Positions 1 to 8,253 of a DNA stretch of 39,272 nt are shown in pieces (positions within the stretch are counted from its first letter, which is position 1; each line of letters starts with the position of its first letter). A model generated the notes under the pieces. The model was not told where the DNA came from. It made no database searches and saw only the letters and a program-made list of their open reading frames with translations. Origin of the DNA: an uncultured Candidatus Saccharibacteria bacterium (GTDB lineage: Bacteria > Patescibacteriota > Minisyncoccia > Phycocordibacterales > UBA918). The position numbers were made by a program, and so were the translations under genes. The stretch is from positions 1 to 39,272 of the forward strand of contig CAZBQV010000001.1 of the NCBI GenBank assembly GCA_964494235.1, given 5' to 3'.

Positions 1-2132
1 CCCGTTGCACTTGAGCCAGCGACCGTCAGCTTACTTGTCGGAGTGGTCGTACCAATACCAAGAAGGCCCGTTGCCGTCAGACGCATCCACTCCGTGCCCG
101 TGCGACTCGTTGAGCGCCATGAGTGGAATCCTCCGCTCCAAGTCGCAAGATCACCCGATGAGATACCGACGCCATAGTTGGTGTTGTAGTAATAAATCTT
201 ATCCGCAATTTCGTCAGTAAAGTCGAGCTGCACACCTGTTGCTGCGGTAATATCTCCGCCCGCAACATCTATACCCGCATCTGCATTAAGATTTCCACCG
301 ACAGTGAGTGCGCCCGTAGTGCTGTCATCAGCATCATTGCGGAGGAACTTGTCAGGAATGAGTGAAAGTGCCAACGTCGAAGTTGATGAAAGCTCACCCG
401 AGCTATTTGCGTAGAGCAAACCATCAGTCAGACTACTGAACGTAATGGTCGACGTTGCGGTAAGTCCTGCAACCGAAAGATTGCCGGTAATGCGTGAGTC
501 GCCTTGTACCGAGAGCTTCGTGAGTGGTGATGAGGTGCCGATGCCGACGTTGCCATCACTCAAGATTCTCATTCGTTCAGTGCTGTTTGTACCAAAAACA
601 ATTGGCGTTGCATTTGCTCCCGTACCGATTAAGAGACCACTACCAGTGAGCGCGAGCATTTCTGCATACCCACCGATGGCAAATCCATATCGACTCGTCA
701 CGCGGCCGGAGCCGTGAGCGATCGCAAGATAACTCGCGGTGTCAGTTCGGCCATATACACCCGCTTGTGCTGTTGTGCCGGATGAGAAGTTGGTGAGATT
801 GAGGTACGTACCTTTGTCCTGCGTTTTATCGACATGCAGCTCCCATGCAGGGCTCGTTGTACCAAAGCCAACATTGCCACTTTCCTTGAAGGTAGCCAGC
901 GGTGTGCTGTTGTATGCCTGAACCTCGAATACTGCGGAAGTTGAGTCATTTATATTGTACTGAGGTTTAACAATCAGGCCTCCTAACGTATACGGAGCGA
1001 GAATGGCATTACCGACACTTTCATGGGTGCCAATTTTTATATTTCCAGCAACCTGAAGCTTTTCCGATGGACTCGAGGTACCAACGCCAACATTTCCATT
1101 GCTTGCAACATACAACCCCTCATCACCCCCATCTCCTGAGATCCAGTTTGATCCAAGTACTATATTTGCCGAAGTACCACTGAACGTGAGGTTACCAGAA
1201 ATTGAATCTCCTGTATTACGAACATACGCATCTTCGATAATTGACGACGAGATTGAAGATGATGCTGAAAGAACACCCGAGCTATTTGCGTAGAGTAAGC
1301 CGCTCGTAAGTCCGCTGAATGTGATGGTGCCGCTTGAGGTGATGCCGGTTGCGGCTGCAATCGCGCCGGATGAATTTACTTGGAAAGCATCATTTGCACC
1401 AACGGTCAGTAACGCCGTCGGCGACGTATCACCGATGCCGACATTTCCACTTTCAAGTACCGTAAAGACTTCCGTACCTCCCGTCTCAAGCAGATTGAGA
1501 ATGTCAGTCGTACCAGACGTCTGCACGGTAAGGCGTGCGCCGCTTGTTGTTGTTGTACCGATACCGATGTGTCCCCCATCCTTTGCGGTAAAGATTGTCG
1601 TTGCACCGTCTTTAAGATCAAGGATATTTCCCGTTCCTGACTGCGTCACCGTCAGGAGCGTCGTCGCAGATGATGAGGCCATCGTGTCAGCATCATCGCT
1701 GCGCAAAAACTGTGATGCGGTAAAGCCATCGAGCTCCTGCGCTTGGAAGGCTGCCGGCACTGCACCAAGCACTTTTCGTGGCGCCATCTCACTATCTGCC
1801 TCAACAGTCACACCAAGGTAAAGTGTCTGATTGAAATCGACGCCCGAAAGTGACGAGACATCACCGAGCATGACGCTGAAGAGTCCGCTCGTTGCGTGGA
1901 CCGTCTGTGTCTCTGTCCAGATGGCAACTCCTCCCGTGGCAACCGTATACAAATTAAATTCGATATCATAGTTACCGTCTGCAACCGCCGCATTGCTGCT
2001 ATTCGTGAGTTTTCCTTGGTAATTAATCTCTGCATTAAATGCAGCCTCGGCTTTTGTTGTATTGAAAATTGCCCCACCACACAGCGCTGCAATGAGCGCA
2101 CAAACGACAAGTACGCGTGCAAGCGCACTCAT
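1..2132 (-). CDS. Giant secreted repeat protein, tail-fibre-like (N-terminal ~710 aa; C-terminus lies beyond the window start)
   Basis: Absent from the supplied ORF track because it has no in-window stop. The reverse complement from the ATG at 2132 reads MSALARVLVVCALIAALCGGAIFNTTKAEAAFNAEINYQGKLTNSSNAAVADGNYDIEFNLYTVATGGVAIWTETQTVHATSGLFSVMLGD.... I translated by eye to position 1 without meeting a stop, and re-checked plus-strand triplets starting at positions divisible by 3 for 1-300. It has a signal peptide and five copies of the motif GNVG(I/V/F)G(T/D)(T/S)SPxxxLxV. The stretch ERMRILSDGNVGIGTSSPLTKLSV is typical of tail-fibre-like surface proteins. Confidence 0.8.
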   Translation of the reverse strand, partial: MSALARVLVVCALIAALCGGAIFNTTKAEAAFNAEINYQGKLTNSSNAAVADGNYDIEFNLYTVATGGVAIWTETQTVHATSGLFSVMLGDVSSLSGVDFNQTLYLGVTVEADSEMAPRKVLGAVPAAFQAQELDGFTASQFLRSDDADTMASSSATTLLTVTQSGTGNILDLKDGATTIFTAKDGGHIGIGTTTTSGARLTVQTSGTTDILNLLETGGTEVFTVLESGNVGIGDTSPTALLTVGANDAFQVNSSGAIAAATGITSSGTITFSGLTSGLLYANSSGVLSASSSISSSIIEDAYVRNTGDSISGNLTFSGTSANIVLGSNWISGDGGDEGLYVASNGNVGVGTSSPSEKLQVAGNIKIGTHESVGNAILAPYTLGGLIVKPQYNINDSTSAVFEVQAYNSTPLATFKESGNVGFGTTSPAWELHVDKTQDKGTYLNLTNFSSGTTAQAGVYGRTDTASYLAIAHGSGRVTSRYGFAIGGYAEMLALTGSGLLIGTGANATPIVFGTNSTERMRILSDGNVGIGTSSPLTKLSVQGDSRITGNLSVAGLTATSTITFSSLTDGLLYANSSGELSSTSTLALSLIPDKFLRNDADDSTTGALTVGGNLNADAGIDVAGGDITAATGVQLDFTDEIADKIYYYNTNYGVGISSGDLATWSGGFHSWRSTSRTGTEWMRLTATGLLGIGTTTPTSKLTVAGSSAT
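395..416 (-). repeat. Copy 1 of a 22-nt identical in-frame direct repeat inside the giant ORF (cacccgagctatttgcgtagag)
   Basis: The identical 22-mer recurs at 1274-1295, exactly 879 nt (293 codons) away. It encodes LLYANSSG within diverged modules (ITFSSLTDGLLYANSSGELSS versus ITFSGLTSGLLYANSSGVLSA). Confidence 0.85.
1274..1295 (-). repeat. Copy 2 of the 22-nt in-frame direct repeat inside the giant ORF
   Basis: Same 22-mer as 395-416. The flanks are only partly similar, which indicates an old module duplication with a conserved core. Confidence 0.85.
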
Positions 2133-2160
2133 ATATATGTATGTGGTTGTAAAGCGAACG

Positions 2161-3696
2161 TTATGCATACCTATACTGGTCTCTCCGTATCAGCCAATAA
2201 CCCACCGCGAGAAGTGCGATGAGCAAGAGGAGAAAGAGAACATTAACTCGACCATATATTCCTGAAGCAACCGATTCCTTTTCTGCGGGGCGCGTAACGA
2301 CAATTGTCGCCCGCACATCTGCCATCTCTTTTAGCGCATAGTCGATCACGGTAATTCCTGTCGGGTAGTAGCCCTCGTCAACAAGCGGGGCGATCTGCGC
2401 TTCGTACGCAGTCTTTTCTTTGTTAATGCGCAACAAAAATGAGAACAGCTGCGACTTATCCTGCGGATGCGCAAGCGTCACCATGACCGTCTTGAGGTTT
2501 TCAAGTAGCGCATCGTATGGGATAAGAATGGTGAATGGTCGAGTGCTGTCGAGCGTAAAGTAGACATCCTCCTCAACGGTGGCAGGAGAAACAACACGTC
2601 CATCTTGGATGAATTGAATATCCATGAGCGAGAGCTCGATCGTGGTTGATGCAGTCCCGCGATCTTCTTCAAGCGGCACACCTGCGCGACGCGCAATTGC
2701 AAGTGCGCCAGACGAGATGTTCCCCTTATCATCGACCGTGAATACGGTGTAGTAGGCACGATCGTTTTTCCGCAATGCATCTGCATCGAAGAATTCCGTA
2801 CCGTCTCCTTCATATATAAGAGCGCCATCATGAGGATCGCTCGGATAGAAGAGGGGCGAACGAAGAATGCGAACATGCGAGAAGTCTGCTTCACGTGGGT
2901 TTTGCCATGAGAGACGCACATCATCGACCGTTTCAACCTGCGTACGAAGATTGAAGACGTTAGATGGTGGGGTGAGGTCCGGTCCCGCAAGTGTTCTAAA
3001 TGAATCTTGCACAAGTGTTCGTTCATTACCGTACTGGTCAACAGTAATGATCGTGAACTCATAGCGCGTGTCAGGAGAAAGTCCCGTGAGTTTCGTTGTG
3101 TGGACCTTCGAGAATAATTCAGTCGAAAGGAATCCTGATTCGTATGATGCAGTGCGCCCCCATCTGACGTGATAGCGAACTGGTGTGAGCGTCTCCCAAT
3201 TCAGATCCGCCGTGTAGAGGCCAGGCGTAATGTAGAGCGATACCAATCCTCCGACCATGCCGCCGCCCGATGAACTCGGAGCTTCTTCAGCTGCTGGTGT
3301 CAGCGTCGTCGCACTCGACGATGCAGATTGTGCTGACACATTCCCTGCCGCATCAAATGCTGCAACGGTGTACGAATACGTCGTACTGTGTGTGAGCCCC
3401 GTGTCGCTATACGTTGTCAGTGTTGACGTGGCAATCTGAACCGAATCGCGAAAGACTCTGTATCCCGTCACGGCAACATTGTCTGTTGAAGCGGTCCACG
3501 AAAGATTGATTTGCGAAACGCTGATCGCCGTTGCAGTGAGTCCCGCTGGTACGCTTGGAGCTGTACCGTCAGGAACACCAGTCACCGTCTGACTAACCGT
3601 GAAGCTATCGTAGTACGCAGCATGAAGCATCGGGGACCACACCATGCTCATGCATGCGAGGGTCATCAGTGTTATGTGCGTAATAAATAATTTCAT
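2161..3696 (-). CDS. Membrane-anchored surface protein with three fibronectin-type-III-like modules
   Basis: 511-aa ORF. N-terminal signal peptide (MKLFITHITLMTLACMSMVWSPMLHA). FN3 signature LTATAISVSQINLSWTASTDNVAVTGYRVFRD...YSYTVAAFDAAGNVS plus two further FN3-like modules (RYEFTIITVDQYGNE; RLSWQNP...YYTVFTVDDKGNIS). C-terminal TM helix followed by a basic tail (VLFLLLLIALLAVGYWLIRRDQYRYA). No LPXTG motif. Confidence 0.8.
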   Translation of the reverse strand: MKLFITHITLMTLACMSMVWSPMLHAAYYDSFTVSQTVTGVPDGTAPSVPAGLTATAISVSQINLSWTASTDNVAVTGYRVFRDSVQIATSTLTTYSDTGLTHSTTYSYTVAAFDAAGNVSAQSASSSATTLTPAAEEAPSSSGGGMVGGLVSLYITPGLYTADLNWETLTPVRYHVRWGRTASYESGFLSTELFSKVHTTKLTGLSPDTRYEFTIITVDQYGNERTLVQDSFRTLAGPDLTPPSNVFNLRTQVETVDDVRLSWQNPREADFSHVRILRSPLFYPSDPHDGALIYEGDGTEFFDADALRKNDRAYYTVFTVDDKGNISSGALAIARRAGVPLEEDRGTASTTIELSLMDIQFIQDGRVVSPATVEEDVYFTLDSTRPFTILIPYDALLENLKTVMVTLAHPQDKSQLFSFLLRINKEKTAYEAQIAPLVDEGYYPTGITVIDYALKEMADVRATIVVTRPAEKESVASGIYGRVNVLFLLLLIALLAVGYWLIRRDQYRYA

Positions 3697-3700
3697 GGTT

Positions 3701-4471
3701 CTAGAGCGGGAGGAGCGTCAAGGTCGTTGTCGCTACGTACTGCCCTGCTGCTTGGTTTGCCGTTGAGCCTATCTCTACACGAAATCGAATCGTCGTCGCT
3801 GTGCCGTTCGGATGATTTGCACTCGTCCTACGGGCAATCGTCTGCGCGCTCGTCGAGAGGCCGTCCCAACATGCACTTGCCGTGTTACCACTGCCGGTAT
3901 TGCACGATGCACCGTTATCTTTGAATCGTGCAGGGATATCGGTACCCTCTGGCGAAAATCCAAACTGTGATTCATTCGCTGAATTTGTGAATGAATAATC
4001 TGGATCTGATCCAACGGGCGTGTAATCGGGAATACTATTGCTTCCTGACTGCATCGCCGGGCTTCCGCTTGCGGTAATGGTCAATTCGTACCCTGCAAGA
4101 TTATCGGTTGTTGCTGTCGCGAAGGTTGATCCATTACTCGTGCCGCCCGTCACACCGCCGAGCGATGGCGAAAGCGTTACGTTTGCCGCATTGGTGAGCG
4201 CAAGATAAATCTCTTGCATTTGCTGATAACCAGCTTTGAGAGCATATGTCTCGCTTTCTGATTCCCCCGTTGCGATTTCTCCTGTTGTATCTTGCAACTG
4301 ATAGTTTGAAGAAGAACTGTATCCTCCGCCGACGTTGATACTATCGCTTTCAATGCGATAGTTGGTGCTCTGCATCACTTGCGCGTCAACGAGCGGTATA
4401 AGTGAACCAGTACACACAAATATGATTGTGAGCAGCGCGGCGGTATACGTATCTCTAAGGAACATGTGCAT
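3701..4471 (-). CDS. Secreted beta-rich protein, WxL-like (paralog of 5483-6172)
   Basis: 256-aa ORF with a signal peptide. Double SxNY motif (QSTNYRIESDSINVGGGYSSSSNYQLQD). Block LSPSLGGVTGGTSNGSTFATATTDNLAGYELTITASGSPAMQ, a C-x10-C pair followed by W (SCNTGSGNTASACWDGL), and C-terminal QYVATTTLTLLPL. This layout resembles WxL surface proteins with Y or T in place of W. Confidence 0.7.
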   Translation of the reverse strand: MHMFLRDTYTAALLTIIFVCTGSLIPLVDAQVMQSTNYRIESDSINVGGGYSSSSNYQLQDTTGEIATGESESETYALKAGYQQMQEIYLALTNAANVTLSPSLGGVTGGTSNGSTFATATTDNLAGYELTITASGSPAMQSGSNSIPDYTPVGSDPDYSFTNSANESQFGFSPEGTDIPARFKDNGASCNTGSGNTASACWDGLSTSAQTIARRTSANHPNGTATTIRFRVEIGSTANQAAGQYVATTTLTLLPL

Positions 4472-4474
4472 GAC

Positions 4475-5479
4475 CTACTTTGTCTTTACGCGTATCTCGA
4501 AGCGACGTGCAATGAATCGAATTGCAAATATCAGCGCAAAGAGCGCACCAAATACAATTGCGATCAGCTTCCACGGAATAACCACAAACGAGATTGTTGC
4601 GGTATCAAGGATATCCTGATAGCCGCGATTCAATGTGAGCTCCGCAGTGTAATACCCTCCCAGATATCCTCGATTCCATGCAAGTTCACGGAATCGAAGC
4701 GAACCCGGAAGCGCAAACCACGGATCTGCACGCACCACACCGACTTCCTGACCGAAGATATTCCGGATCCGTATTTCACCGTACGGATTGAGATGGATCG
4801 ATCCGGTATTCCCAAACAGTACCTGGAATCGAATCGGTCCATCGGTAAAGAACATCTTGTCTGGTATCGTGCTGAAATCTTCGAGCGCACCCTCAGTGCG
4901 CACGTCTCCTGGCACGGTTACAAAGAACAAAGTTCCAACACGCGACACAATGACGGATCCCGTGCGCGCCATACCTGGCTCGACTGCGGTCCCATCTTCT
5001 GCCGACGTCGTCGTTACAAGAACTGTGCCGTATCGACCTCCCGGCTCAGCATCTGCTGGTACCGATATTGTCACCGGAACTCGCGCTCGCTCTGCGTGCT
5101 GCAGAACGAAGCTCATCTCCGAAATCTGAAGATAATCATGGAGCGAGTACGGTCCTCGATCATCACCGAGGAGCACAACCGTTGTATTTGGATCCTGTGA
5201 TCCAGTCACGTCTTCAATCGCAAGATTGAATGTTCGTGCAGTTCCCATGCGATTTGTTACCAGAAGTTCAACCGTCTTCGTCTCTCCGGGCTGGACAGAA
5301 AGTTCAACTTTTCCCGGTCCAACCACAAAGTCTCCGACAACAGTGTCTTCAGGCAACTTTTCTATCTCATACGCAGCGTTCGTGTGCGTCGGCACAAAAA
5401 GCAGCCACGCGAATGCAACAAGAAGACCTACGATACTCAATCGGATCTGTCTGGCTGTGTAGGTATTTCGAGTTGTCAT
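4475..5479 (-). CDS. Membrane-anchored Ig-like surface protein, DUF916/DUF3324-like (WxL-locus partner type)
   Basis: 334-aa ORF with a signal peptide (LLVAFAWLLFVPTHTNA). Contains PGKVELSVQPGETKTVELLVTNRMGTARTFNL and VPVTISVPADAEPGGRYGTVLVTT, then IRFQVLFGNTGSIHLNPYGEIRIRNIFGQEV. C-terminal TM plus basic tail (WKLIAIVFGALFALIFAIRFIARRFEIRVKTK). Confidence 0.7.
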   Translation of the reverse strand: MTTRNTYTARQIRLSIVGLLVAFAWLLFVPTHTNAAYEIEKLPEDTVVGDFVVGPGKVELSVQPGETKTVELLVTNRMGTARTFNLAIEDVTGSQDPNTTVVLLGDDRGPYSLHDYLQISEMSFVLQHAERARVPVTISVPADAEPGGRYGTVLVTTTSAEDGTAVEPGMARTGSVIVSRVGTLFFVTVPGDVRTEGALEDFSTIPDKMFFTDGPIRFQVLFGNTGSIHLNPYGEIRIRNIFGQEVGVVRADPWFALPGSLRFRELAWNRGYLGGYYTAELTLNRGYQDILDTATISFVVIPWKLIAIVFGALFALIFAIRFIARRFEIRVKTK

Positions 5480-5482
5480 ATA

Positions 5483-6172
5483 TCAGTTTGTTACGGCAGT
5501 AAGTGTTGTTGTCGCTACATACGTATCTGCAGGAACTGCTGGCGATGGGTTTGCAGTAATCTGCGCACGGAAGAAGATCGTGGTCGTCGCACCAGATGCT
5601 GGTGTTTCGGTCGCACGATTGATGATCGTTTCCGGTGATGTTGAGAGGTTATACCAACACGCACCTGCGGTATTACTTGATCCTGTCGCACAGGTATCTA
5701 CGCCGTTGTCACGAAATGTCGGATCAACATCCGATGTTGTCGTTGCTTTTACGCTATACGCAAATTCAGCGGTATTTGATCCAACCGAAAATGTGAAATC
5801 GGGCGTACCAGCAGATGCTTCAGTGTAATCCTGAAATTCACCACCCTGTGAGTTTCCCTGAAGCGCAGGGCTCGAGCTCGCTGTAATGCTCATCGAATAA
5901 CCTGCAGCGTTGTTTGTCATGACGCGCACCTGTGTGGAGCCGTTTGACGTACCTCCCGTAATACCGGCAAGTGATGGACTCATTGTCACATTGTTTGCTG
6001 TTGCAAGAAATGAAATTTCTGCGGTAACAGTCTGTGAGATGGTGAACTGATCGTAGATTGCCTGTCCTACGCGCGGTTCTGCCACCAAGTACGCACTCAG
6101 AAGCGCGACCATAGCAATGAGCGTGAGAACAAGCGATTGCTTGAGCGTGTGTACTATTTCAATGCTTTTCAT
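5483..6172 (-). CDS. Secreted beta-rich protein, WxL-like (paralog of 3701-4471); first gene of the surface operon
   Basis: 229-aa ORF with a signal/anchor segment. Contains MSPSLAGITGGTSNGSTQVRVMTNNAAGYSMSITASSSPALQ, TCATGSSNTAGACWYNL and C-terminal TYVATTTLTAVTN. It aligns block by block with 3701-4471. Confidence 0.7.
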   Translation of the reverse strand: MKSIEIVHTLKQSLVLTLIAMVALLSAYLVAEPRVGQAIYDQFTISQTVTAEISFLATANNVTMSPSLAGITGGTSNGSTQVRVMTNNAAGYSMSITASSSPALQGNSQGGEFQDYTEASAGTPDFTFSVGSNTAEFAYSVKATTTSDVDPTFRDNGVDTCATGSSNTAGACWYNLSTSPETIINRATETPASGATTTIFFRAQITANPSPAVPADTYVATTTLTAVTN

Positions 6173-6232: not shown

Positions 6233-6264
6233 AGCGCAGAGTGTGCATACGCACACTCTGCGCT
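6233..6264 (-). terminator. Perfect 14-bp hairpin (agcgcagagtgtgc / atac / gcacactctgcgct) overlapping the stop codon of 6263-7114
   Basis: The inverted repeat was read directly from the sequence. No clean U-tract follows on the minus strand, so it may be a non-canonical terminator or an RNA-stability element. Confidence 0.45.
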
Positions 6265-7114
6265 ACCGACCAGGATCAATAGGTACAAGTACGTACCGGT
6301 ATTGATCGCCTGCACGCGATCTGAAAACCGGCTGTACCATACCTGTCCCCCCATCACCTTCGGGCGTGACGACAACCTCGTCCGAAAACGAAGTCTTTAC
6401 CGATTCAATCTCAGCGCGTGAAGCATCGCCCGGAAGCACAACCATTCCTTCACTTACCGGCGCCGCGCCTCCACGCAAATCAACCGCAGGTGTTCCCTCG
6501 TAGGTCAATGAAGCTGACTCGCGCGATGACATATGCGCAAACATGTAGACGCCGATCGCAAGACTTCGAAGTGCGTCATGCGTATGCGAAAAAAATGAAT
6601 CAATCGTCGTTGCAACTGCTGCGACATGTTCAGCTGCGTCCGTCGCGCTCTCAAGAACAACCGCAGAATCAATTGCTCCAAGTGCTACCACTGCATCTGC
6701 TGTGCGCTCCAATGGAGTTGTATATAAAAATATTCCAAGAAACCCTCCCGCAAAGAGAGCAAAAAAAGACATGAGGAGCGCCTGGACACGAAGCTCAATT
6801 GAATCAGAAACAAAGACTGGAACATACGGTGACGGCAATGCTTTCGCACGAATGACTTTTTTCTGAAACTGCACGCGCTCAAGCTGACGCTCGCGTCGAA
6901 TTCGATCACTTCGAAGTTCTTTATTCTTTGAACTTGACGCAACAAATGATGCGAGCGAATCTGCGTTGACCAACCACTGCTTTCCGAGCCGCTGCGCCGC
7001 AACTTTTCCTTCTCGAGCAAGACGTGTGACATAGTCGGCAGTATATCCAAACATACGTCCCGCCTCTCCGGCTGGAATGTAATCACTATTTTGAATTTTT
7101 ACTGCAATTGCCAT
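6263..7114 (-). CDS. Membrane-tethered DNA-binding protein: N-terminal Xis/MerR-type HTH, one TM helix, ~150-aa C-terminal domain
   Basis: 283-aa ORF. HTH region AGEAGRMFGYTADYVTRLAREGKVAAQRLGKQWLVNADSLASFV. TM helix VQALLMSFFALFAGGFLGIFLY. Paralogous N-terminus to 7477-8253. Confidence 0.75.
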   Translation of the reverse strand: MAIAVKIQNSDYIPAGEAGRMFGYTADYVTRLAREGKVAAQRLGKQWLVNADSLASFVASSSKNKELRSDRIRRERQLERVQFQKKVIRAKALPSPYVPVFVSDSIELRVQALLMSFFALFAGGFLGIFLYTTPLERTADAVVALGAIDSAVVLESATDAAEHVAAVATTIDSFFSHTHDALRSLAIGVYMFAHMSSRESASLTYEGTPAVDLRGGAAPVSEGMVVLPGDASRAEIESVKTSFSDEVVVTPEGDGGTGMVQPVFRSRAGDQYRYVLVPIDPGR

Positions 7115-7476: not shown

Positions 7477-8253
7477 TTATTTATCTATATCACTCATGAT
7501 ACTCGAGAGGGACGCAACGTTATAGCGTGCATCCATCTGTTTGTCTACCTGTGATCCGCCTGATGTGTAGACCCACTGTATCTCTGCAAAAATATTCAAG
7601 AGTAGGACTATAAACATAGTAGTCGCGAGTATCATTGGTGCAAGCGAACGTCGAACTACAATTTCTCGCACTTCAGGAAGAGACTGGATCTCCATGTTTT
7701 TTTCATTCACCTGTCGTATTTCGCGCAAAACGCGGTCGTGGCTTTGTTTTTGCTTAACACTCGTGTCTGACACGTCTCTTCGAATTGCAACTGAAATTTC
7801 GGCATTTTGAGGCGTTTCTTCTTTTTCTGGCACGATTGGTTCAGAAAATTCAACACCTTTATCACTTTCTTTTTCAGGCGCTTGATTTGAAGTGCGGATC
7901 GGACTTGGTATTAAATTATCTGATTCACTACTATAACTTATTGGAGTTTCAAGAAGACGACGCCAGTGCGCTGACTCAGATGTTGTCTTTATGGGAGCGT
8001 CTTGTCGCACATCTATTTCTGCTCGTTGTCTCTGCACATCCTTGCGCGTTACTTCAGCATTTGATCGGTCAGCATTCTGCTGCTTATGCGATGCAAGTGA
8101 ATCTTCGTGAACATACCAGGTCTTACCCAAAAGCACCGCATCAATTTTCCCCTTTCTACAGAGTTGTCCAACATAATCAGCTGTATAACCAGCTGCAGTC
8201 GCCGCTTTCGAAGCCTTGATATATTTTTTATCTGCAAACACAACAGTATCCAT
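7477..8253 (-). CDS. Membrane-tethered DNA-binding protein: N-terminal Xis/MerR-type HTH, charged linker, C-terminal TM helix
   Basis: 258-aa ORF. HTH region ASKAATAAGYTADYVGQLCRKGKIDAVLLGKTWYVHEDSLASH. TM helix LAPMILATTMFIVLLLNIFAEIQWVY near the C-terminus. Confidence 0.75.
   Translation of the reverse strand: MDTVVFADKKYIKASKAATAAGYTADYVGQLCRKGKIDAVLLGKTWYVHEDSLASHKQQNADRSNAEVTRKDVQRQRAEIDVRQDAPIKTTSESAHWRRLLETPISYSSESDNLIPSPIRTSNQAPEKESDKGVEFSEPIVPEKEETPQNAEISVAIRRDVSDTSVKQKQSHDRVLREIRQVNEKNMEIQSLPEVREIVVRRSLAPMILATTMFIVLLLNIFAEIQWVYTSGGSQVDKQMDARYNVASLSSIMSDIDK

Follow-up and report, generated by a model that had tools for sequence, protein, structure and literature searches.

A conserved operon of Parcubacteria-type bacteria encoding a WxLIP-like protein and candidate subunits of a compact surface filament

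Layout and conservation of the locus

The window analysed here comprises 39,272 nt of contig CAZBQV010000001.1, and its first 6,172 nt contain five minus-strand open reading frames (ORFs), which were named P1 to P5 in the order of transcription (Table 1). This locus is a conserved, unannotated operon of Parcubacteria-type bacteria of the candidate phyla radiation (CPR). The ORF list and translations reproduced the coordinates and the intergenic gaps of 3, 3, 4, and 28 nt that had been given in an earlier interpretation of the same DNA made from its letters alone (hereafter the sequence-only reading). Signal peptides on all five proteins and C-terminal transmembrane (TM) anchors on the second and fourth had also been proposed there. 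A hydropathy scan found hydrophobic N-terminal leaders in P1, P2, P3, and P5 and a weaker one in P4; in P2 and P4 it also found a C-terminal TM helix with a basic tail behind it. These leaders suggest that all five proteins are exported through Sec. An LPXTG partner, which had been described as missing, was indeed not found, since no window ORF of at least 80 aa carries an LPXTG-type signal, and Pfam scans of the window ORFs gave no sortase. Neither the window nor the related loci that were inspected contained an usher-like ORF. The module is neighboured by the housekeeping genes gatB, obg, secA, and murB, beyond which lies a large island of cell-envelope glycan genes.

Table 1. Coordinates of the genes and features of the window.
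Feature	Position (nt)	Strand	Residues	Description
P1	5483-6172	minus		229-aa ORF; putative secreted single-domain pilin-like subunit, candidate polymerising subunit
P1 leader		minus	about 1-37	the N-terminal strand and a beta domain that has a single conserved Cys pair come next
P1 candidate N-terminal donor strand (Nte)	6020-6061	minus	38-51	AIYDQFTISQTVTA; common to P4, co-varying
P2	4475-5479	minus		334-aa ORF; predicted membrane-anchored chaperone-like protein, WxLIP/PapD type
P2 C-terminal TM helix	4511-4567	minus	305-323	hydropathy scan
P3	3701-4471	minus		256-aa ORF; putative secreted pilin-like subunit, candidate distal (tip) subunit
P3 NY-repeat segment	4214-4381	minus	31-86	STNYRIESDS / SSNYQLQDTT / SETYALKAGY; common to PamT
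P4	2161-3696	minus		511-aa ORF; candidate base/anchor with FN3 array and, before the TM helix, an unassigned region
P4 N-terminal strand	3580-3618	minus	27-39	AYYDSFTVSQTVT; common to P1
P4 C-terminal TM helix (basic tail follows)	2188-2244	minus	485-503	hydropathy scan
P5	1-2132	minus		at least 710 aa, start at 2132, open at the window edge; tail-fibre-like, MAT-like
P5 N-terminal MAT match	1851-2057	minus	26-94	NCBIfam Bdello_MAT_N, 8.6e-6
P5 Bd2133-like stretch	462-887	minus	416-557	Bd2133, PDB 8ond, 2.7e-7
Hairpin	6233-6264	minus		perfect, 14-bp stem, GTAT loop; read from the sequence
H1	6263-7114	minus		N-terminal helix-turn-helix (HTH_17/excisionase-like), one TM helix
H2	7477-8253	minus		N-terminal helix-turn-helix (HTH_17/excisionase-like), one TM helix
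Glycopolymer island	about 15570-39176			large cell-envelope island; Pfam scans of the window ORFs

The sequence-only reading had proposed the gene order in relatives as a check, and the order and strand of P1-P2-P3-P4 were kept in 53 of the 58 related loci with enough flanking sequence. Exactly two ORFs with the P1/P3 domain were found in 73 of 84 loci (83 related loci and the window), and only one of these loci contained an ORF with this domain longer than 400 aa. In many distinct genomes the module lies in the same chromosomal context (murB-secA-obg-gatB). The P2 family comprises more than 1,159 homologues and the P3 family 1,887 cluster representatives, among which the best 150 matches were all close relatives. 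The module is very widespread, and its genes are annotated as hypothetical proteins only. The exact P4 protein was not on record, and contigs with identical or near-identical P2- or P3-family proteins were at most 5 kb long. The metagenome-assembled genomes (MAGs) with relatives of P2 were labelled Kaiserbacteria, Paceibacteria, Zambryskiibacteria, Nomurabacteria, Taylorbacteria, and Parcubacteria, and the named labels that were checked fall within the NCBI Parcubacteria group. Many module-bearing MAGs (third-party annotation records, which are GTDB species representatives) are titled uncultured Ca. Saccharibacteria, and one is titled 'Nanoarchaeia archaeon'; these titles are probably generic or mis-binned.

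From gatB to P5, the window is collinear with the nearest genome (CAZXUO010000002.1, locus L011). The amino-acid identity to this genome was 97.8% for P1, 93.4% for P2, 89.8% for P3, and 85.9% for P4, compared to 81.1% for gatB, 75% for H1, and 65% for H2. The four-gene core was better conserved than gatB, and the identity dropped along the operon from P1 to about 61% in P5. In all genes but P1, about 45-54% of the third codon positions were identical (about 50% in gatB and P2-P4), compared to 67% in P1. High protein identity together with diverged third codon positions indicates very strong purifying selection and not recent transfer. Recent horizontal transfer, as an explanation of the 98% identity of P1, was rejected for P2-P4, whose third positions are as diverged as those of gatB; in P1 the third positions are less diverged, and one third of the codons for identical residues still differ. 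Such selection is as expected for tightly interlocking, abundant structural subunits. A module that is widespread and conserved above a housekeeping enzyme shows a pattern that fits a major cell-surface structure.

Properties of the encoded proteins

P2 is a homologue of the WxLIP/DUF916 proteins, as judged from sequence profiles and from its predicted structure. A WxLIP protein combines a DUF916 (PGBD) domain, a second Ig-like domain (DUF3324/HBD), and a C-terminal TM helix. The window protein scored 20.6 bits against Pfam PF06030 (DUF916), under the gathering score of 27.3 bits, and 43 of 44 P2-family members matched this model at E <= 0.01 (best 9.5e-8). The P2-family profile matched WxLIP1 of E. 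faecium (EfmWxLIP1; PDB 9i25_C and 9i1y_A) at 2.7e-8, and the hhalign comparison with seven Firmicute WxLIPs taken from plasmids gave a probability of 95.3%, over the first domain only. The AlphaFold2 (AF2) model, with a predicted local distance difference test (pLDDT) score of 90.6, consists of the leader, two beta-sandwich domains, and the C-terminal TM helix. In the Foldseek search with this model, the WxLIP structures 9i1y/9i25 ranked at the top (5e-12, 275-283 columns, both domains), followed by RbmA and then, at 1e-7 to 1e-5, by the chaperone-usher chaperones CfaA, CsuC, CupB2, EcpB, DraB, FimC, and Caf1M. These structural matches of the model show that the protein class of P2 has a PapD-type chaperone architecture, and the fold and the homology suggest that P2 may act as a chaperone. 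Of the earlier description of the second gene as DUF916/DUF3324-like, the DUF916 part was upheld by Pfam, the PDB profile search, hhalign, and Foldseek, whereas Pfam DUF3324 did not match P2, the second domain of which resembles WxLIP by structure only. The sequence NQIDKxxxYFDLK, which WxLIP proteins conserve close to the start of the PGBD, does not occur in P2, and the P2 family reads DFVVGPGK.EL at the aligned position. In a paper on WxLIP, this protein was read as a binder of peptidoglycan and host, and the connection to the PapD chaperones was not drawn. The papers listed for DUF916 in the literature searched all dealt with Firmicutes or other non-CPR topics, so that a link to CPR bacteria has apparently not been published there.

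P1 and P3 are paralogs with 47% identity over 165 aa, the N-terminus of P3 being longer by about 55 residues, and P1 matched the hidden Markov model of the P3 family over residues 56-227 at 5e-47. C161 and C172 of P1 are invariant in an alignment of 65 P1 orthologues. Both proteins had been called WxL-like in the sequence-only reading, and the motifs quoted there (AGYELTITA, AGYSMSITA, and YVATTTLT) are all present, with Trp at neither of the two motif positions. The assignment itself was not supported. [quoted passage not shown] Pfam WxL was found in none of the 65 P1 orthologues and in neither window protein, and it was absent from the precomputed Pfam annotation of 120 P3 homologues. The hhalign probability of P1/P3 against ten Firmicute small WxL proteins from plasmids was 0.4-1.2%, a pooled 147-sequence domain profile gave no significant match to WxL, and the solved WxL chain 9i25_A did not appear among the best 50 matches that Foldseek gave for the model of P3. 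As none of the four approaches reached significance, WxL homology was set aside for both proteins. The best local alignment paired the C-terminal hairpin 'F.V.V...Y.ATTTLT' with 'V.L.VPGS...Y.TTLTW' at the same position, at a non-significant E of 0.15. In a control, a profile of ten WxL domains saw 9i25_A only at E 0.019, which indicates that WxL domains are very divergent and that the negative profile tests on P1 and P3 are not decisive.

In the AF2 model of P3, residues 88-256 were confident, and residues 31-86, with a pLDDT below 50, were disordered in the monomer. The latter segment, which carries the NY repeats, contains many invariant residues and ranks with the best-conserved parts of P3. 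The NCBIfam model NF058579 (CPR_pilus_PamT), which represents the tip pilin of the Pam pilus, matched P3 at 3.3e-10 and all 43 of 43 P3-family members (best 1.3e-14). Residues 31-91 (61 aa) alone matched at 1.1e-8, and this model matched neither the C-terminal domain of P3 nor P1. Foldseek returned weak matches for the P3 model (E 3e-3 to 0.1, TM-scores 0.2-0.5), which were mostly donor-strand subunits, the names being CfaB, PapE, the PapG pilin domain, FimG/FimA, PapA, TasA, TLP-1, and CanA. The P3 profile had no match in the PDB by sequence, and Pfam Caf1 was weakly matched by 5 of the 65 P1 orthologues. The predicted fold of P3 weakly resembles that of donor-strand pilins.

In some relatives, large adhesins carry a C-terminal P3-like domain, among them P0352 (1,205 aa) and P0303 (2,187 aa); in P0352 a Laminin_G_3 domain and four fn3 stretches precede it. 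These proteins parallel the 'large WxL' proteins and the two-domain tip adhesins of chaperone-usher pili. Among the P3-family representatives, many that measure 450-670 aa look like fusions of P2 with P3 or like read-through calls, such as P0243, in which WxLIP_PGBD is followed by the P3 domain.

The mature N-termini of P1 and P4 have a strand-like motif in common, which reads AIYDQFTISQTVTAE in P1 and AYYDSFTVSQTVTGV in P4; the window sequences compared were AIYDQFTISQTVT (P1) and AYYDSFTVSQTVT (P4). In P1 the strand sits immediately before the first strand of the confident domain, and F43 and Q47 are nearly invariant. The motif was found in P1 and P4 orthologues across loci, where the two copies varied together within genomes, as in the P1/P4 pairs TVKQ/TVKQ, VVITQ/VVITQ, and EIHQ/EVHQ. 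This was measured in 53 dereplicated loci as the best 11-mer BLOSUM62 score. The mean score of P1 and P4 from the same locus was 26.6, compared to 21.6 for different loci and 15.7 ± 3.6 for P1 against the shuffled P4 segment, and the same-locus value was reached in none of 10,000 permutations. The control, the N-terminal region of P3 against P4, scored 15.7, at the level of the shuffled sequences. These sequence patterns suggest that the common element is a donor strand. As a protein that combines the strand with an acceptor domain, P1 would be able to polymerise. P3 has the domain and no strand motif, which fits a distal cap, and P4, in which the strand is joined to an FN3 stalk and a TM helix, fits a terminator and anchor.

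In the leader of P1, a Glu-Pro pair follows the hydrophobic core (…EP.[VL]..[AS]…; residues 32-33) and precedes the strand motif by about 5-10 residues. Over the 65 sequences, E32 never varies and P33 hardly does. This strictness is unusual for the c-region of a signal peptide and may reflect a dedicated processing step.

A shared N-terminal motif was also observed in two WxL loci of Enterococcus plasmids (L001:2182-4795 and L007:1634-4295). In these loci the LPXTG anchor and the WxL proteins have the mature N-terminal motif Y[DNT]SNG.[IV].F in common. It reads AYDSNGVTSF and NYDSNGVTAF in the LPXTG proteins, and EYTSNGAITF, SYTSNGAVDF, EYNSNGQITF, DYDSNGVVEF, and NYDSNGVITF in five of the six WxL proteins. 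A motif common to subunits and anchor suggests that WxL clusters may assemble by strand complementation too.

In P4, Pfam fn3 was matched at 2.7e-15 in two stretches, and a third FN3-like stretch was identified as Pur_ac_phosph_N, so that the three FN3 domains proposed earlier are plausible. P4 also matches FN3 structures in the PDB. By analogy with PamR, the anchor of the Pam pilus, P4 is a candidate for the base of the filament.

P5 contains GNVGIGTxSP..KL repeats and matches Bdello_MAT_N and Bd2133, in agreement with its earlier description as a tail-fibre-like repeat protein of more than 710 aa. The Bdello_MAT_N score was 25.6 bits compared to a cutoff of 60. The first approximately 200 aa were 47-58% identical across loci, and the remainder was mosaic. 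Compared with the L011 homologue, the identity was 61% over the first 542 residues. The homologues reached lengths of 1,379 aa (L011), 3,182 aa (L009), and 4,020 aa (L008).

The neighbours of the module were counted in the 45 loci with flanks on both sides, where any protein that measured at least 800 aa or ran off the edge of the locus was taken as a giant. A giant lay directly beside the module in 33 loci, downstream in 18 and upstream in 15, and 12 loci had neither. The P5-type N-terminal domain was present in all 18 downstream giants and missing from 13 of the 15 upstream giants. Between the N-terminus of P5 and the NY segment of P3 there was no similarity, no P3-like domain was carried by the giants adjoining the module in the loci examined, and no sequence link of P5 to P1, P3, or P4 was found. 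P5 is the likely host-contact element and, speculatively, may dock on a structure made of P1-P4 or act beside it.

Nine of the upstream giants, from L010, L013, L024, L039, L057, L062, L065, L069, and L087, lie directly upstream of the P1 orthologue and, as far as the loci extend, range from about 1,100 aa to over 3,000 aa. They have a common C-terminal beta domain (…GGPSD.WGR.W…NF.VRV…VDAIQVRVYHQA) and end with 8-10 glycines and then one or two residues ending in I or L. In the giants of L029 and L048, the poly-Gly stretch is followed by a hydrophobic TM-like stretch and, in L048, by a basic tail. Judged from its sequence, the poly-Gly end looks like an undescribed C-terminal sorting signal.

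Comparison with known systems and a candidate filament

The CPR Pam pilus, which the sequence-only reading had no means of recognising, is a closer and more specific comparison for the module than the WxL/Csc complexes. It was described in Ca. Mycosynbacter amalyticus, where an operon of Sec-exported proteins with a tail-fibre-like neighbour encodes it (Troman et al., bioRxiv 10.64898/2026.03.03.709456). According to this preprint, PamA (55 kDa) and PamB (39 kDa) are two-domain major pilins with a nine-strand N-terminal domain, a donor strand in the linker, and a truncated Ig-like C-terminal domain, and PamT is a single-domain tip pilin. The chaperones PamC and PamD are PapD/FimC-like and keep a C-terminal TM helix. 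PamR is an RbmA-like FnIII protein that has an additional strand at its N-terminus and a TM helix at its C-terminus, and it both terminates the filament and anchors it. The Pam pilins were found mainly in Saccharimonadia and Microgenomatia, and WxL or DUF916 are not mentioned there (bioRxiv 10.64898/2026.03.03.709456).

The window proteins were compared with this description and with the NCBIfam models. Both systems are CPR-specific operons of Sec-exported proteins without an usher or trans-envelope machine, and both have paired cysteines in the pilins and a tail-fibre-like neighbour, which is P5 in the window. P2 corresponds by description to the PapD-like chaperones with a C-terminal TM helix (PamC/PamD), P3 has its N-terminal segment in common with PamT, at a score far below the cutoff of that model, and P4 resembles PamR in its sequence features, namely the FnIII domains of a putative anchor, the N-terminal strand, and the TM helix at the C-terminus. 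On the other hand, one chaperone is present here and two in the Pam operon, the gene order differs, and the module belongs to the Parcubacteria group. A genome-contig search with the P2 family returned relatives only, none of which was labelled M. amalyticus.

With the chaperone-usher pili (Pap, Fim, CFA/I, Csu, and Caf1) the module has in common the two-domain Ig-like chaperone fold and, weakly and in the predicted structure, the pilin-like subunit fold. The proposed subunits also follow the same logic, in which the tip has no donor strand, the subunit that polymerises carries one at its N-terminus, and a further subunit terminates the fibre. CPR bacteria have no outer membrane, and in contrast to these pili the module has no usher, its chaperone would be tethered to the membrane, and the terminator itself would be the membrane anchor. 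There was no sequence similarity to PapD or to the pilin families of Pfam except for the 5 of 65 weak Caf1 matches.

The mosaic adhesive trimer (MAT) fibres of Bdellovibrio bacteriovorus have a conserved N-terminal domain, a beta-helical trimeric shaft, and a variable tip of the S74 or another type. P5 resembles them in its N-terminus and in residues 416-557, the latter by the match to the Bd2133 shaft, and in both the sequence after the conserved N-terminal domain is mosaic and changes fast. The window organism, too, probably lives on other cells. The two differ in that the Bdello_MAT_N score of P5 is below the cutoff and that the P5 gene adjoins a chaperone/pilin module, which is undescribed for the Bdellovibrio MATs; the C-terminal tip of P5 falls beyond the window edge. 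For the MATs, it was proposed that the invariant N-terminal domain attaches to a surface element yet to be identified (Caulton et al., 2024, PMC10769870). The adjacency of P5, which comes without a sequence link, makes the pilin/anchor module a candidate for this element.

On balance, and with moderate confidence, we read the locus as encoding a thin, compact Pam-type filament that is built with a membrane-tethered WxLIP-type chaperone and no usher, and that is paired with a MAT-like adhesive fibre. All five proteins would be exported by Sec, and P2 would be held in the membrane by its C-terminal helix. As a two-domain chaperone of the PapD/WxLIP type, it would hold the incomplete beta domains of P1 and P3. 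P3, with an acceptor domain and no donor-strand motif, would take the distal end and expose its PamT-like NY-repeat segment. P1, with its 14-residue N-terminal strand and its acceptor domain, would then be added head to tail. P4 has the N-terminal strand and no acceptor domain and would plug the last P1 and end growth, with its FN3 array spanning the wall and its C-terminal TM helix anchoring the filament. P5 would be a secreted fibre of the Bdellovibrio MAT type for host contact, docked on the filament or beside it.

Several points weigh against this proposal. Donor-strand exchange, polymerisation, and the order of the subunits are deduced from the logic of the sequences only. The within-genome co-variation of the strands could stem from gene conversion. 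P1, P2, and P4 match no Pam model in NCBIfam, and the PamT score of P3, 39.8 bits compared to an equivalog cutoff of 240, comes from the N-terminal segment only; the structural matches of P3 to pilins are also weak. Two-domain pilins of the PamA/PamB type are missing from the window, where the candidate for the shaft is the single-domain P1 of 229 aa, and Pfam scans of the window ORFs found no ATP synthase neighbour in the 39 kb. P5 lacks both the strand motif and a pilin-like domain, and what ties it physically to the module is adjacency, which was seen on one side or the other at 33 to 36 of 45 loci.

A non-filamentous complex of the WxL/Csc type, in which P1 and P3 would be highly diverged WxL-like wall-binding domains held by P2 and would form no polymer, appears unlikely to us. 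It would account for the relationship of P2 to WxLIP, with homology in the first domain, a structural match in both domains, and the C-terminal TM helix, and also for the combination of one WxLIP-type protein with two small secreted paralogs, which is the commonest WxL composition. Large adhesins adjoin both kinds of loci, a helix-turn-helix gene is nearby (in Firmicute loci beside WxLIP), and the small subunits have an N-terminal motif in common with the anchor protein. Co-linear motifs can be aligned ('TD..AGY.LTI' with 'TD.RG..GW.L.V', and 'Y.ATTTLT' with 'Y.TTLTW'), the C-terminal P3-like domain of P0352 and P0303 recalls the large WxL proteins, and the WxL profile barely detects even 9i25_A, so that the negative tests are not decisive. 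However, P1 and P3 have no detectable WxL domain or Trp-x-Leu motif by Pfam, hhalign, or Foldseek, and P2 has neither NQIDKxxxYFDLK nor Pfam DUF3324. The anchor is an FN3/TM protein here instead of a small LPXTG protein with a sortase, a partner that many but not all WxL clusters have, and the host is a CPR bacterium and not a Firmicute (Lactobacillales). In addition, the strand common to P1 and the TM-anchored P4 is left unexplained by such a complex. The sequence-only reading had seen a WxL/Csc-like complex in the locus; its DUF916-like protein and its general view of surface attachment survived, and its WxL domains found no support. Since two Firmicute WxL loci show the same shared-motif pattern, the WxL/Csc view may not be a true rival of the filament.

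Quite unlikely, in our view, is a dock for giant adhesins, in which P4-P1-P3 would form a short membrane-anchored adaptor or stalk and no long pilus, and the NY segment of P3 would dock the conserved N-terminal domain of the fibre. The giants directly beside the module in 33 of 45 loci would suit it, as would the P5-type N-terminal domain of all 18 downstream giants, the surface element that the invariant MAT domain has been proposed to bind (PMC10769870), and an NY segment that is highly conserved yet disordered in the monomer model. However, no similarity or motif ties P5 to P1, P3, or P4, an adjoining giant is missing from 12 of the 45 loci, and 13 of the 15 upstream giants are without the P5-type domain, most of them carrying the different C-terminal poly-Gly signal. 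P1 moreover has what a polymerising subunit requires, a donor strand and an acceptor domain. A phage-derived remnant, consisting of a prophage tail-fibre gene and accessory genes without function in a cellular appendage, has hardly any probability. The tail-fibre-type repeats of P5 and faint matches to Peptidase_S74, Caudo_TAP, and Amidase_5 in homologues from relatives recall phage genes, but all five proteins carry Sec-type leaders, the core is under strong purifying selection, and Pfam scans found no phage structural or replication genes in the window. A phage origin was rejected in view of the constant murB-secA-obg-gatB context in many genomes and of a BFVD fold search that gave no meaningful match.

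Relative to the published Pam pilus, the filament proposed here would be new in its lineage, which was not emphasised for Pam, in its minimal set of parts, in its single-domain shaft subunit, and in its sequence link to WxLIP. Parcubacteria-type bacteria (GTDB Paceibacteria) make up a very large share of the CPR, and to our knowledge almost nothing has been reported on how they attach to their hosts. If the proposal is true, the Pam principle reaches this large group in a minimal form of four proteins, which would be easily reconstituted. It would also link the literatures on Pam pili, WxL/WxLIP proteins, and chaperone-usher pili, which do not cite one another in the papers searched, and would make the P1-P4 module a candidate docking partner for MAT-like fibres. 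A further idea, possible but doubtful, is that the four-gene core is a minimal ancient pilus of bacteria without an outer membrane, of which Pam and WxL/Csc are elaborations. In it, a membrane-tethered PapD-like chaperone of the DUF916/WxLIP family would join the subunits by donor-strand exchange and without an usher, and in this CPR group the structure would also be the long-sought surface element by which MAT-type giant fibres are held for host-cell contact.

Other features of the window

Upstream of P1 lie the genes of two helix-turn-helix proteins, H1 and H2, and genes of the same type are located between gatB and the module in relatives. The position suggests a link of both proteins to the module, which they could possibly regulate. 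The H1 orthologues have the conserved C-terminal motif PVF[KR]....D[QE]Y[RL][YF][VL][LM]VP[VI]. The sequence 'DQYRY', which is common to the C-terminus of H1 and the tail of P4, is unconserved in P4 orthologues and was treated as a chance match.

The hairpin overlaps the stop codon of H1, 60 nt before the start of P1, and has no T run, which explains why it escaped the terminator scan. It is a probable boundary of the five-gene transcription unit and may be a terminator or an operator. The promoter and terminator scans gave hits no more numerous than in shuffled sequence, and the Rfam and tRNA scans of the window were empty.

The glycopolymer island encodes an O-antigen-ligase/tetratricopeptide-repeat protein, a flippase, a CDP-glycerol glycerophosphotransferase, several methyltransferases, and at least six GT4 glycosyltransferases. 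For phosphonate synthesis it contains a phosphoenolpyruvate mutase-cytidylyltransferase fusion, a thiamine-pyrophosphate enzyme resembling phosphonopyruvate decarboxylase, and an iron-dependent alcohol dehydrogenase (Fe-ADH). This gene content suggests that a CPR bacterium makes a teichoic-acid-like polymer decorated with phosphonates.

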